DNA of 30,591 nt. It comes from Eledone cirrhosa. Taxonomy: Eukaryota. Below are positions 5,797-30,591 of the stretch, one piece after another. The translations under genes and the position numbers were made by a program. The stretch spans positions 1 through 30,591 of the forward strand of contig CAXHJY010001620.1 of NCBI GenBank assembly GCA_964016885.1, written 5' to 3'. The notes under the pieces were generated by a model. The model was not told the origin of the DNA and did no database searches. It saw nothing but the letters and a program-made list of their open reading frames with translations. Numbering within the stretch: position 1 is the stretch's first letter; each line of letters begins with the position of its first letter.

Positions 5797-5916
5797 AATA
5801 TTGACATACCCTTAAAAAATACGACCATTACTGTTGGAAGCTCCCGGATAGTGTTGGAAGCTCCCGGATATATATATACAGTTGAAAATTGCAAACTCGA
5901 CTGTCACCACATATTA

Positions 5917-5955
5917 TGAACCTGAAGATTGCGAAAGCATGAAAGTACTTGTTCA
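5917..5955 (+). ncRNA. Minimal type I hammerhead ribozyme motif
   Basis: UGAAC-CUGAAGA-U-UGC-GAAA-GCA-U-GAA-AGUACU-U|GUUCA; palindromic helix III AGUACU; U.U mismatch at the base of helix II. Confidence 0.65.
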
Positions 5956-6123
5956 ATTAACATTTAGAATTTAATATTCTATCATACTATTTCATTATAA
6001 TACCATTATATATTTTAAAGGATTGTAAATAAAACGAGTAAATCAGACAAAGTTGGAATTCCTCTTATTAATATAATCTTCTATACACAATCATACACAC
6101 CCGTGTATATTTACCTATCTATA

Positions 6124-6159
<36 letters not shown>

Positions 6160-6204
6160 CATACGTACAGACAGACATTTTGACGTGCGTCTACATGTGA
6201 AAAA

Positions 6205-6297
6205 CATATATCTGAGGAGCTTTCGATTCCCGAGTCAGGAACGACATCAATCGATTGTTCCTCGAGCTGATCGACAATGAAACATATGTAATATGTG
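6205..6297 (+). ncRNA. Type I hammerhead ribozyme motif with long helix II
   Basis: CAUAUAU-CUGAGGA-[UCGAUU/GAUCGA; AGGAACGA/UUGUUCCU]-GAA-ACAUAUGU-A|AUAUGUG; base of helix II imperfect. Confidence 0.6.
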
Positions 6298-6424
6298 GTT
6301 AAATATGTATATGATGCAACAGTGATTCTTTGTTCCCTAATTATTTTATATATATGACCGGCAACCGCTCTGTATAATCAGTTCCTGATTATTACTTTAA
6401 TTCTGTAAGAATCCATCATTCATA

Positions 6425-6519
6425 ATTTTCAGCAAACAGGAGGAGTGCCGAGCTTTGATAAGTACCAACAAGTACGAAACAGAGTTCTGTCAGCTTATCT
6501 CTCCTTGTTTGCTGAAAAT
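6425..6519 (+). ncRNA. Type I hammerhead ribozyme, U3:A8 core variant, full helix III
   Basis: GAGCU-UUGAUAA-GUAC-CAACAA-GUAC-GAA-ACAG-AGUU-CUGU-C|AGCUU; helix I extended by AUUUUCAGCAAACAGGAG/CUCCUUGUUUGCUGAAAAU. Confidence 0.85.
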
Positions 6520-6704
6520 AAAAGTAAGTGACATTGTCACTACTTTAAAACAATAGCGTAAGGTCTTCAAAATGTTTTTAATTAAGCATACAATGTATTG
6601 CAAAATACACTATATATATATATATATATATATATGCGAGTGCATCTATTTTTGTATTTCATTGTTTGTCTATATATATGTGTGTGTGTGGCTGTGCATG
6701 TATG

Positions 6705-12327: not shown

Positions 12328-12604
12328 TTGTTTCTACTTTTGGCTCCAGGCCAGCAATTACGCCCAGTACATTACTGGTACTTTATTTATCGACCCCCGT
12401 AAGGATGAAAGGAAGAGCTAACCTTGGCGGTTAATAATAATAATCAATGTTTCAAGGCCAGCAATTACCCCAGTATATTACTGGTACTTTATTTTTCGAC
12501 CCCCGTAAGGATGAAAGGAAGAGCTAACCTTGGCGGTTAATAATAATAATCTATGTTTCAAGGCCAGCAATTACTCCAGTGCATTACTGGTACTTTATTT
12601 TATC
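12328..12604 (-). mobile_element. Three tandem truncated family A SINE 3' halves (~106-bp period)
   Basis: AGGCCAGCAATTAC...ACTGGTACTTTATTT recurs three times, separated by (TAA)n tails. Confidence 0.85.
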
Positions 12605-22663: not shown

Positions 22664-22896
22664 ATATTAAAATATAAGTATTAATAAAATAGATGTTCTT
22701 TTGATCAATTACATTTTATTATACATATTTCGGCTGTACAACAGTACGTCCTCAGTAACCATTTAACATCTCAGGGTATGTCATGTATCATTATATTTTG
22801 TCTGATGAGGACGTACTGTTCTACATCCGAAATATGTATAATAAAATGTAATTGATCAAAAGAACATCTATTTTATTAATACTTATATTTTAATAT
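22664..22896. mobile_element. 91-bp inverted repeat containing an HHR; putative Penelope-like terminal-repeat remnant
   Basis: Arms 22664-22754 and 22806-22896 (2 mismatches), 51-bp spacer, island flanked by (TA)n. Confidence 0.7.
22787..22856 (+). ncRNA. Type I hammerhead ribozyme motif
   Basis: AUUAUAUUUUGU-CUGAUGA-GGA.C.GUA-CUGUUC-UAC.A.UCC-GAAAUAUGUAUA|AUAAAAUGUAAU; 12-bp helix I with two G-U pairs; cleavage after 22840. Confidence 0.8.
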
Positions 22897-23347: not shown

Positions 23348-23449
23348 ATATATACATATCTATATATACATATATACAAACACAGGTACATGTTGTATTA
23401 CACTCTTCGCTTTCTTTTGTTTTTTGGGTTTTGTTATAACTAGAATGAA

Positions 23450-24140
23450 TATATACATATATATACATATTTATATATGGATATATGTATGTATACATAT
23501 ATATATATGGATATATGTATGTATACATATATATATATGGATATAGGTATGTATACATATATAGGTATATGTATATATACATATATATATGGATATAAGT
23601 ATATATACCTATATATATGGATATAAGTATATATACCTGTATATATGGATATAAGTATATATACCTGTATATATGGATATATGTATATATACCTATATAT
23701 ATGGATATAAGTATATGTACCTATATGTATGGATATATGTGTATATATACCTATATATATGTATATGTGTATATATATATATATGGATATATATGTATAT
23801 ATATATGGATATATGTATATATATACCTATATATATATATGCACATATATATGTATATATATGTTCATATAAATATATACATATATATGTGCATATATAC
23901 ATACATATATATATATGTGCATATATATATACATATATATGTGCATATATACATGCATATATATATATACATATATATATATATGTGCATATATATATAT
24001 ATATGTGCATATATATATATATGTGCATATATATATATACATACATATATATGTGCATATATATATATATATACATATATACATAGATATATATTCATGT
24101 ATACACATATATTTATATATACACAAATATATATACTTAT
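23450..24140. repeat. (TA)n compound repeat with GGATA/CCTA/GTGC interruptions
   Basis: Direct inspection. Confidence 0.9.
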
Positions 24141-24478
24141 ATGTCCTCATGTTAAATACTGTTTGACAAAAGCTTGAGAATACAATGGATAGAAAAAAAT
24201 GTGACTTAAAAAAATACACGAATTCTATGTTGGATGTGTGACAGCTTTTAGAAGCTTGTAGGCTTTGTACAAACTATAACAAAAAAAAACACTAACAACA
24301 TACCTTGTGTCACACACTGATGAGGTTGTCGGTGGGGATTCTTGTCTAACAATATGTGTGTGTCTGTGTCTGTTATTTATATATGTATATATGTATGTGT
24401 GTGTGTGTGTATATATCTTTCAATGTAGTAAACTTCCTTACCAAAACACTTGTTAAATAGGAAACAGTCGACTACAAG

Positions 24479-24932
24479 TATATATATATAATATATATAC
24501 ATATAATATATAATATATATATATAATATATATACATATAATATATAATATATATATATACATATAATATATATATATACATATAATATATATATATATA
24601 CATATAATATATAATATATAATGTATATATATACATATAATATATATATATATACATATAATATATAATATATATATATATAATATATAATATATATACA
24701 TATAATATATATATATACATATAATATATATATATAATATATAATATATATATATACATATAATATATATATATACATATAATATATAATATATATATAT
24801 ACATATATACATATATACATATTATATATATATATACATATAATATATATATATACATATAATATATAATATATATACATATAATATATATATATACATA
24901 TAATATATATATATATACATATAATACATAAC

Positions 24933-24963
<31 letters not shown>

Positions 24964-26241
24964 CATATATACATATATATATACATATATACATATAATA
25001 TATACATATATACATATAATATATATATATACATATAATATATATATATACATATAATATATATATATATACATATATACATATAATATATATATATACA
25101 TATATACATATAATATACATATATACATATAATATATATATATATACATATATACATATAATATATATATATACATATATACATATATATATACATATAT
25201 ACATATAATATATATATATATACATATATACATATAATATATATATATATACATATATACATATAATATATAATATAAATATATAATATAAATATATACA
25301 TATATATATATATATACATATATACATATATATATACATATATACATATATATATATACATATAATATATATATACATATAATATATATATATACATATA
25401 ATATATAAATATACATATATATAATATATATATACACATATAATATATAAATATACATATATATAATATATATATACATATATATATATACATATAATAT
25501 ATAATATATATATATACATATAATATATAATATATATATATATATACATATATATAATATATATATACATATAATATATATATATACATATAATATATAA
25601 TATATATATATGTATACATATAATATATATATATACATATAAATATATATATATACATATAATATATAATATATATATATATACATATATATAATATATA
25701 TATACATATATATAATATATATATACATATATATATATACATATAATATATATATATATACATATAATATATAATATATATATATACATATAATATATAA
25801 TATATATATATACATATAATATATAATATATATATATACATATAATATATATATATACATATAATATATAATATATATATATACATATAATATATATATA
25901 TACATATAATATATAATATATATATATACATATAATATATATATATACATATAATATATAATATATATATATACATATAATATATATATATACATATAAT
26001 ATATATATATACATATATATAATATATATATACATATATATAATATATATATACATATATATATATATAAAATATATATACATATACATATAATATATAT
26101 ATATACATATAATATATATATATACATATAATATATATATATACATATATATAATATATATATATATAATATATATATATACATATAATATATATATATA
26201 CATATAATATATATATATATATATATACATATATACATATA

Positions 26242-26274
<33 letters not shown>

Positions 26275-29200
26275 CATATATACATATAATATATATATAT
26301 ACATATAATATATATATATATACATATAATAATATATACATATATATACATATAATATATATATATATACATATATACATATAATATATATATATACATA
26401 TATACATATAATATATATATATATACATATATACATATAATATATATATATATACATATATACATATAATATATATATATATACATATATACATATATAT
26501 ATACATATATACATATAATATATATATACATATATACATATAATATATATATATACATATATACATATATATAATATATATATACATATATATATATATA
26601 TAATATATATATACATATATATATATACATATAATATATATATATACATATAATATATAATATATATATATACATATAATATATAAATATACATATATAT
26701 AATATATATATACACATATAATATATAAATATACATATATATAATATATATATACATATATACATATATATACATGTATATATATACATATAATATATAA
26801 TATATATATATACATATATATAATATATATATACATATAATATATATATATACATATAATATATTATATATATATATACATGTATATAATATATATATAC
26901 ATATAATATATATATATACATATAATATATAATATATATATATACATATATATAATATATATATACATATAATATATATATACATATAATATATAATATA
27001 TATATATACATATATATAATATATATATACATATATATAATATATATATACATATATATATATATACATATAATATATAATATATATATATACATATAAT
27101 ATATAATATATATATATACATATAATATATATATATACATATATATAATTTATATATACATATATATATATATAAAATATATATACATATACATATAATA
27201 TATATATATACATATACATATAATATATATATATACATATAATATATATATATACATATATATAATATATATATACATATACATATAATATATATATATA
27301 CATATAATATATAATATATACATATATATAATATATATATATACATATATAATATATAATATATATATATACATATAATATATAATATATATATATATAC
27401 ATATATATAATATATATATACATATACATATATATAATATATATATACATATATATATATATAATATATATATACATATATATATATAATATATATATAC
27501 ATATAATATATATATACATATATATATATAATATATATATACATATATATACATATAATATATATATACATATATATAATATATATATATACATATAATA
27601 TATAATATATATGTACATATAATGTATAATATATATATATACATATAATATATAATATATATATACATATAATATATAATATATATATATACATATAATA
27701 TATAATATATATATACATATAATATATAATATATATATATATACATATAATATATAATATATATATACATATAATATATAATATATATATATACATATAA
27801 TATATAATATATATATACATATAATATATAATATATATATACATATAATATATAATATATATATACATAAAATATATAATATATACATATATATAATATA
27901 CATATACATATATAATATACATATATATAATTTACATATACATATAATATACATATATATATATATCATATATATATATAATATATATATATATAAAATA
28001 TTTATATAAATATATACAATATAATATATATATACATATACGTATATATACATATATATACATATATATAATATATATATACATATATATAATATATATA
28101 TACATATATATAATATATATATACATATATATAATATATATATACATATATATTATATATATACATATATATAATATATATACATATATATAATATATAT
28201 ACATATATATAATATATATACATATATATAATATATATACATATATATAATATATATACATATATATAATATATATATATACATATATATAATATATATA
28301 TACATATATATAATATATATACATATATATAATATATATACATATATATAATATATATACATATATATAATATATATACATATATATAATATATATACAT
28401 ATATATAATATATATACATATATATAATATATATACATATATATAATATATATATACATATATATAATATATATACATATATATAATATATATATATACA
28501 TATATATAATATATATATATACATATATATAATATATATATACATATATATAATATATATATACATATATATAATATATATATACATATATATAATATAT
28601 ATATACATATATATAATATATATATACATATATATAATATATATATAATATATATACATATATATATATATATACATATATATAATATATATATACATAT
28701 ATATAATATATATACATATATATAATATATATATACATATATATAATATATATATACATATATATAATATATATATACATATATATAATATATATATACA
28801 TATATATAATATATATACATATATAATATATATATATACATATATATAATATATATACATATATAATATATATATATACATATATATAATATATATACAT
28901 ATATAATATATATATATACATATATATAATATATATATACATATATATAATATATATATACATATATATAATATATATATACATATATATTATATATATA
29001 CATATATATAATATATATATACATATATATAATATATATATACATATATATTATATATATACATATATATAATATATATATACATATATATTATATATAT
29101 ACATATATATAATATATATATACATATATATAATATATATATACATATATATTATATATATACATATATATAATATATATATACATATATATTATATATA

Positions 29201-30591
29201 TACATATATATAATATATATATACATATATATAATATATATATACATATATATTATATATATACATATAAATAATATATATATAGATATGTTATATATAT
29301 ACATATATATAATATATATATACATATATATTATATATATACATATATATAATATATATATACATATATATAATATATATATACATATATATAATATATA
29401 TATACATATATAATATATATATACATATATAATATATATATACATATATATAATATATATATACATATATATAATATATATATACATATATATAATATAT
29501 ATATACATATATATAATATATATATACATATATATAATATATATATACATATATATAATATATATACATATATATAATATATATACATATATATAATATA
29601 TATATACATATATATAATATATATATACATATATATAATATATATATACATATATATTATATATATACATATATATAATATATATATACATATATATTAT
29701 ATATATACATATATATAATATATATATACATATATATTATATATATACATATATATAATATATATATACATATATATTATATATATACATATATATAATA
29801 TATATATATATACATATATATTATATATATACATATATATAATATATATATATAATATATATATATACATATATATAATATATATACATATATATAATAT
29901 ATATATACATATATATAATATATATATACATATATATAATATATATATACATATATAATATATATATACATATATATTATATATATACATATATATTATA
30001 TATATACATATATATAATATATATATAGATATATTATATATATACATATATATTATATATATACATATATATAATATATATATACACATATATAATATAT
30101 ATATACATATATATAATATATATATACATATATATAATATATATATACATATATATAATATATATATACATATATATAATATATATATACATATATATTA
30201 TATATATACATATATATTATATATATACATATATATAATATAGATATAGGTATATATAATATATATATATACATATATATAATATATATATACATATATA
30301 TTATATATATACATATATATTATATATATAGATATATTATATATATAGATATATTATATATATAGATATATTAATATATATAATATATATATACTATATA
30401 TATAATATATATAATATATATACATATATATAATATATATACATATATATACATATATATAATATATATACATATATATAATATATATATAATATATATA
30501 TATATACATATATATAATATATATAATATATATAATATATATATATATATATATACTATATATATAATATATATATACTATATATATATAT
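24479..30591. repeat. ~6.1-kb TA-rich satellite, (TA)nCA(TA)nA units of about 19-30 bp
   Basis: Continuous to the window end; source of the long Y/I/M/C/V pseudo-ORFs. Confidence 0.97.

Follow-up and report, generated by a model that had tools for sequence, protein, structure and literature searches.

The stretch of Eledone cirrhosa DNA analysed here (contig CAXHJY010001620.1, positions 1 to 30,591; hereafter the window, meaning all 30,591 nt) carries at 6425-6519 a hammerhead-like motif whose core reads UUGAUAA instead of CUGANGA. This raises the question whether the motif is a genuine ribozyme, to what kind of element it belongs and in which form of its RNA it would cut. The answer considered likely is a type I hammerhead within a 5′-truncated copy of a non-LTR retrozyme with a unit of about 320 nt, which was probably copied into TA sequence by Penelope-like machinery, is predicted to work better as a double hammerhead and has its U3:A8 pair family-wide. 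Retrozymes and U3:A8 cores have each been published already, and the window family is another retrozyme case. The motif alone is ordinary; its value lies in the natural series of subfamilies B, D, C, E and A, which have common flanks and differ at 3:8, at 10.1:11.1 and in loop III, so that the effects of core covariation on rate, folding and monomer-versus-dimer behaviour could be measured on natural sequences.

A descriptor allowing any Watson-Crick pair at positions 3:8 was used for the search of the window. A single type I hammerhead was found, with U3 at 6455, A8 at 6460 and C17 at 6491, and the descriptor gave 0 matches in 100 block-wise dinucleotide-shuffled windows. The parts of the motif are the following:

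6425..6519, plus strand: extended hammerhead domain with an outer stem of 16 + 4 bp, internal loop I and helices I to III (folding, and covariation across subfamilies)
6450..6454, plus strand: 5′ strand of helix I, pairing with 6492-6496 over 5 bp, the last being G-U (descriptor)
6455..6461, plus strand: core U3-U4-G5-A6-U7-A8-A9 (UUGAUAA) with the U3:A8 pair (descriptor, copy census, sister units)
6462..6475, plus strand: helix II of 4 bp (strands 6462-6465 and 6472-6475) with G10.1-C11.1 and the loop CAACAA (descriptor, HH9 alignment, covariation)
6476..6491, plus strand: G12-A13-A14, helix III (4 bp, tetraloop) and the GUC site, with the predicted cut after 6491
6492..6496, plus strand: 3′ strand of helix I (descriptor)

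Within the fifth of these, GAA occupies 6476-6478, helix III is formed by 6479-6482 and 6487-6490 around the loop AGUU, and GUC lies at 6489-6491. All parts of the motif named in a preliminary description were thus located again at their places by descriptor and folding. The outer stem of about 18 bp that it had placed beyond the internal loop is also there, computed as 16 bp plus 4 bp, and its remark that a search for CUGANGA alone would pass over this UUGAUAA core was borne out. Folding of the 106-nt hammerhead stretch gave z = -7.2, and none of 200 shuffles was equally good. The motif aligned end to end with Rfam Hammerhead_HH9 (RF02275) at 24.6 bits (E 6.5e-4 for 431 bases searched), which is below the HH9 gathering score of 52 bits; in an Rfam scan of the whole window the hammerhead was absent among the best 150 of 297 matches that were listed. 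In common with HH9 it has a helix II of 4 bp, whose loop CAACAA resembles the HH9 loop CAAAAA, and an internal loop in helix I. The sequences of loops I and II are HH9-like and conserved, the 5′ side of loop I staying GUGC or GUAC across subfamilies. HH9 is a single-copy intronic motif of amniotes (PMC6155905), whereas the Eledone motif is a mobile repeat. Judged from descriptor and fold, the type I hammerhead in the window is genuine.

The search of the animal's own 3.0-Gb genome with the window repeat yielded 2928 candidates, the best places being 93-96% identical (40 scored). The exact pattern of the intact U3:A8 hammerhead matched at 516 places, and a reversed-pattern control at none. At locus L014 the unit measures 318 nt between cleavage sites and its longest open frame has 70 codons, which places it within the 150-450 bp of non-coding retrozyme units that carry a single type I hammerhead. 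Other copies have the element's own 3′ end ahead of the start of homology, and the unit is therefore circularly permuted. Tandem copies with periods of 317-322 nt were present at L014, L137, L138, L141, L145, L164 and L165; L137 and L138 are dimers with two UUGAUAA cores and L141 is a trimer. Hammerheads in consecutive tandem units are accordingly found in the family, the window copy itself being a monomer of less than one unit. Dimers, a trimer, inverted two-armed insertions ending in (TA)n and a Penelope-like footprint (see below) together identify the family as a non-LTR retrozyme, and by its genomic features it appears to belong to those of animals. As described in PMC7229834 and 10.64898/2026.07.22.740005, animal non-LTR retrozymes likewise have non-coding units in this size range, each with one type I hammerhead, occur as monomers, dimers and multimers, are low in GC and co-occur with Penelope-like elements. 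Unlike those described there, the Eledone family has a U3:A8 core, mostly dispersed and truncated copies with inverted arms in TA runs, and a helix III of 4 bp with a 12-nt palindrome and a predicted local self-block. In the literature covered, mostly outside subscription journals and without supplements, which may list related families, nothing was found on this retrozyme family. Contigs from three runs of one sample were also aligned to L014 and revealed many variant copies. At L014:1400-2050 the contig depth over the flanks was about ten times that over the hammerhead, the depth not being a copy number; this excess is consistent with further sister subfamilies that have the flanks in common.

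Within the window, the repeat comprises three further features:

6357..6633, plus strand: 5′-truncated, single-armed retrozyme copy of subfamily A1, 277 nt of the unit of about 318 nt (identity to the doubled L014 unit)
6520..6610, plus strand: 3′ part of the unit, made up of consecutive small hairpins that recur in the sister subfamilies (sister comparison, folding)
6611..6635, no strand: (TA)n run at the 3′ junction, likely the insertion target (peers with the same ending)

Homology among copies begins near 6356 and reaches the TA run (6611-6635), and the window copy is 93% identical to positions 184-459 of the doubled L014 unit. It belongs to the 'short' class of 3′ ends, ends in the TA run and lacks an inverted arm. 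Compared with 28 peers of the same length it has four differences, at 6449, 6485, 6502 and 6521. At the first of these, C replaces the U of 27 of the 28 peers and the sixth pair of helix I is lost. By this comparison the window copy is a slightly decayed member and not the family's best. Since it contains a single hammerhead and is shorter than a full unit, it is unable to release a monomer on its own; it is most likely a dead-end insertion.

The origin of the U3:A8 pair was traced through the sister subfamilies, in which the flanks are about 80-92% alike and the ribozymes are different. Among family-A units, 43 of 45 have U:A at 3:8. Subfamily B has C3:G8 with U10.1-U11.1 or A-U, subfamilies D and C, known from few copies, have C3:G8 with A10.1-U11.1, and subfamily E has C3:G8 and a helix II identical to that of family A. 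Subfamily B (L079-L106) is abundant and has a GUU site and a helix III of 3 bp beside U10.1-U11.1; its U-U at the base of helix II recalls HHR_Amex2 of the axolotl. With helix II fixed as in family A, 103 genome matches lacked U3, and 86 of the 100 listed had C3:G8; U3 without A8 occurred in only 8 matches, against at least 516 with U3:A8 under a stricter pattern. In a midpoint-rooted tree of 69 of the 113 units (A and B subsampled, core columns included, three family-A units mislabelled), a branch supported at 100/99 sets the U3:A8 units apart; their clade is the sister of E, lies within C3:G8 groups and later divided into further subfamilies with the pair intact. Since this single supported branch is nested among C3:G8 groups, the switch from C3:G8 to U3:A8 was, as read from the tree, most likely one derived event, and it can be placed there because the C3:G8 sisters survive in the same genome.

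Covariation was assessed on 18 hand-picked units of about seven subfamilies. The 3:8 pair was CG in 13 and UA in 5, never unpaired; with C3:G8 sisters in the same genome and 3:8 paired in all 18 units, U3:A8 behaves as the natural compensatory pair that had been proposed for it. Overall, 91.6% of cells could pair, and 12 of 35 pairs had changed on both sides, compared with 1-6 in slid controls; 12 was reached in 21 of 500 shuffles. Three of the four helix II pairs had changed on both sides; helix III was invariant and hence uninformative. The alignment of paralogues suggested in the preliminary description therefore shows core and helices kept. One U3:A8 clade among C3:G8 sisters marks the covariation as real, and on the tree the 3:8 covariation appears as one event. 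Within A1, 4 of 336 core cells had changed and 62 of 2408 of the rest, so that the core was only slightly less changed. Such near-equal change would be expected of decaying copies, with selection visible only between subfamilies.

The pair itself has precedents. U3:A8 also occurs in unrelated minimal hammerheads of autonomous Penelope-like elements of this genome, and 3:8 exchanges were reportedly studied in vitro by Przybilski and Hammann. PMC3088659 (Perreault et al. 2011) describes U3/A8 covariation in nature together with activity found earlier in vitro, and PMC4209133 (Cervera and De la Pena 2014) gives about 1,300 U3-A8 matches in the Cercyon minimal hammerheads of Schistosoma mansoni Penelope-like elements. 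The compensatory core pair is identical to the one in these sources; in contrast to the Cercyon minimal hammerheads, the Eledone pair sits in a full-size hammerhead of canonical type. These data bear on the reading that the U3:A8 ribozyme is inactive baggage and that the repeat spreads by means of its conserved flanks without cleavage. A predicted misfolding of the ribozyme (see below), the wide spread of subfamily B despite U10.1-U11.1 and a weak helix III, and the spread of Naiad elements without canonical hammerheads, as given in PMC8557442, would agree with it. However, in the 18 units of about seven subfamilies the core positions are invariant and changes in the helices compensate each other, the U3:A8 clade diversified into further subfamilies without losing the pair, and ribozymes with U3/A8 covariation are active in vitro according to PMC3088659; inactive baggage is regarded as exceedingly improbable.

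In which form the ribozyme would cut was approached by folding, with the C3:G8 sister subfamily E as control. In the window copy the minimum-energy fold is not the hammerhead, which is 5.3 kcal/mol worse, but one containing a further element:

6450..6487, plus strand: predicted decoy helix, pairing 6450-6457 with 6480-6487 and burying U3-U4-G5 (nearest-neighbour prediction only)

In the prediction the decoy forms once 6487 has been transcribed and is retained at all greater lengths tested. Median penalties of the monomer were 6.0 kcal/mol in A1 (n=19), 2.9 in A2 (n=8) and 0.5 in E (n=9), and the value for subfamily B was also high, at 7.7. Since the subfamily values differ, the decoy penalty does not appear to be a blanket bias of the model; nearest-neighbour energies nevertheless omit the core and the contacts between loops I and II and therefore underrate the active fold. 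No comparable loop III decoy was found described within the same literature scope as above.

The motif had been put forward in the preliminary description as the best candidate for a monomeric active ribozyme. This was not supported: the window copy has a predicted misfold of 5.3 kcal/mol as against 0.5 in E under the same model, it is a lone insertion of sub-unit length with the sixth pair of helix I broken, and the palindromic helix III of most of its peers suits a double hammerhead. A related reading is that the hammerhead of this retrozyme is an efficient monomer, the decoy being overcome by contacts between loops I and II and by the long outer stem. Helices II and III of 4 bp, G10.1-C11.1, the GUC site, the HH9-like loops I and II and the 5′ side of loop I kept across subfamilies speak for it, as do the family-A units without predicted penalty (the range starts from 0.0) and a coral monomer with such contacts that cuts at about 0.8 per min, according to PMC7229834. 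Against these stand the decoy at all lengths tested, the difference in penalty from E and the broken helix I pair, and the efficient monomer is regarded as unlikely.

Folding of tandem copies points instead to the double hammerhead. In natural dimers trimmed to units (five of family A and two of E, L138 left out), the double hammerhead was better than two single ones in 7 of 7 and was the minimum-energy fold in 3 of the 5 family-A dimers. With flanks of 45 nt the two-single fold was better than the double in L137 (5.9 versus 7.6) and in L138 (7.4 versus 18.0), the latter being adjoined by an inverted arm; several dimer units carry core mutations. A perfect 12-nt palindrome of helix III is present in 36 of 45 family-A units, and the window copy is one change away from it, at 6485. 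The preference is not unique to the palindrome, since it was also seen in the two E dimers, which are not palindromic. With 4 bp, helix III is longer here than in the known obligate dimers, which have 1-2 bp (PMC4209133). Retrozymes of the axolotl perform poorly as monomers and cut far better as dimers (PMC7229834), and of 9 retrozyme dimers predicted in Xenopus, 8 failed to cleave in vitro (10.64898/2026.07.22.740005).

A more specific version of the dimer reading is possible but doubtful. In substitutions made in the folding script, the change in loop III that creates the palindrome costs about 3-4 kcal/mol and U3:A8 recovers about 2.7 kcal/mol. The U3:A8 clade might thus have an oligomer switch, in which the palindrome created by one loop III change (AGAU to AGCU) would drive cleavage of tandem transcripts as a double hammerhead, the decoy would shut down the released monomer or circle, and U3:A8 would keep the switch reversible, having been fixed because U3 weakens the decoy by about 2.7 kcal/mol. 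If true, this would explain a core covariation by folding and, by self-pairing, how an animal retrozyme circle avoids re-cutting; according to PMC7229834, the hammerhead is predicted to stay accessible in most animal retrozyme circles, the mussel being partly excepted.

The ends of the copies were examined with respect to their mobilisation. Copies stop in TA runs, and their ends fall at one or the other of two points separated by about 26 nt. Of the two-armed loci, which numbered 43 after 8 overlapping duplicates had been dropped, 40 combine a long with a short end (21.4 expected by chance, p 1e-9), and the remaining loci are 3 short+short and 0 long+long; single-armed loci comprise 34 short and 26 long ends. 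All features of Penelope-mobilised insertions, namely 5′ truncation, an inverted arm, a tail at one end and a microsatellite target, are present in the family, as they are in the Penelope-like elements of Craig et al. 2021 (PMC8557442). The genome yielded 10,596 GIY-YIG candidates (150 scored). At L061 an ORF of 938 aa comprises RT plus GIY-YIG, and its linker, C-X4-C-X2-C, is of the Neptune/Nematis type. Penelope-like loci here also end in TA with two ends, and 5 of 6 loci with both orientations of the same family combine two different ends (by eye). The paired long and short ends lend sequence support to the proposed Penelope-like mobilisation of retrozymes.

Several observations were made on the Penelope-like elements themselves. 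L061 (G000:C1:145870300-145876800), L062, L066, L070 and L072 form an apparently intact family; the terminal repeats of the L061 family are 97.8% identical over about 1 kb and contain a minimal hammerhead with U3:A8 along with a short tandem array. The loci L031-L076 comprise at least three families with TA ends at family-specific distances past the hammerhead, two of them with long/short ends at 142-144/76 and 154-164/115-125 nt. With the long end of the retrozyme the L061 family has no more than a few terminal letters ahead of the TA run in common, too few to identify it as the partner.

An alternative reading takes the unit for a pseudo-LTR belonging to an autonomous Penelope-like element and its copies for extreme 5′ truncations. 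With EN+ Penelope-like pseudo-LTRs, as described in PMC8557442, it has in common 5′ truncation, partial tandems, an inverted 5′ copy, a hammerhead near the end, a tail at one end only and microsatellite targets. It differs from them in being an ORF-free, self-closing unit with a tail of about 26 nt rather than 30-40. TA targets, inverted arms and two ends as in local Penelope-like elements, the U3:A8 minimal hammerheads in terminal repeats of the latter and the reported derivation of retrozymes from such repeats (10.64898/2026.07.22.740005) are in line with this reading. Yet the sequence upstream of the unit is its own 3′ end and not coding sequence, and dimers and a trimer exist without an ORF. 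In flanks of about 1.5 kb or less, the unit was the sense 3′ end of an RT/GIY-YIG ORF in 0 of 119 retrozyme loci, and Penelope-like coding sequence lay within about 1.5 kb of only 2 of them, in opposite orientation at L006 and separated by that element's TA end and inverted arm at L077. A pseudo-LTR is on these grounds very improbable, and the unit may have descended from a Penelope-like terminal repeat. Blastn of the unit against 46 GIY-YIG loci yielded no homologous terminal repeat of an autonomous partner, the sole match being an independent sister insertion in L032. From the Penelope-like footprint and the abundance of Penelope-like elements in this genome, we infer mobilisation of the retrozyme in trans by Penelope-like proteins.

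Under the preferred reading of a retrozyme acting as a double hammerhead, read-through transcripts of tandem copies would pair through their palindromic helix III strands, and the paired hammerheads would cut the tandem RNA after each GUC. The resulting monomer of about 320 nt would probably be circularised. A Penelope-like RT/GIY-YIG protein would prime on TA DNA and, starting at two fixed points separated by about 26 nt, copy round the template, which would give partial tandems and inverted arms. RNA of the window copy, if made, is predicted to cut slowly because the decoy helix competes.

The remainder of the window was surveyed as context. A comparison with five Penelope-like proteins gave no coding match in the window, an entire contig of 30.6 kb, and its long open frames resemble translations of microsatellites. 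Rfam miRNA matches in the whole window (best 150 listed) were microsatellite-driven and were discarded as chance, as was a weak minus-strand match to SECIS_5 (6373-6427; 14.6 bits, E 9.6). A fragment from the 3′ terminus of a GIY-YIG Penelope-like family lies at 5877-6163 (plus strand) and has 97-99% identity to L064, L065 and L074; its minimal hammerhead-like core at about 5922 reads CUGAAGA, helix II starting with U-U at its base and helix III being palindromic. Another core, CUGAGGA at about 6214 within 6190-6310 (plus strand), was seen by eye and undetected by the descriptor; it has an insert of about 60 nt before GAAA and a palindromic helix III. Three more C3:G8 hammerheads with a short helix III are located at 22802 (plus strand), 15133 (minus strand) and 5764 (minus strand), those at 22802 and 5764 having a helix I of 12 and 8 bp and flanks that are alike. 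Another common repeat, partly in tandem and also present in many other loci, occupies 293-562, 1331-1744, about 2773-2960 and 12348-12601, and an AT-rich satellite of about 7 kb with a period of 19-21 nt extends over 23449-30591 to the end of the contig.
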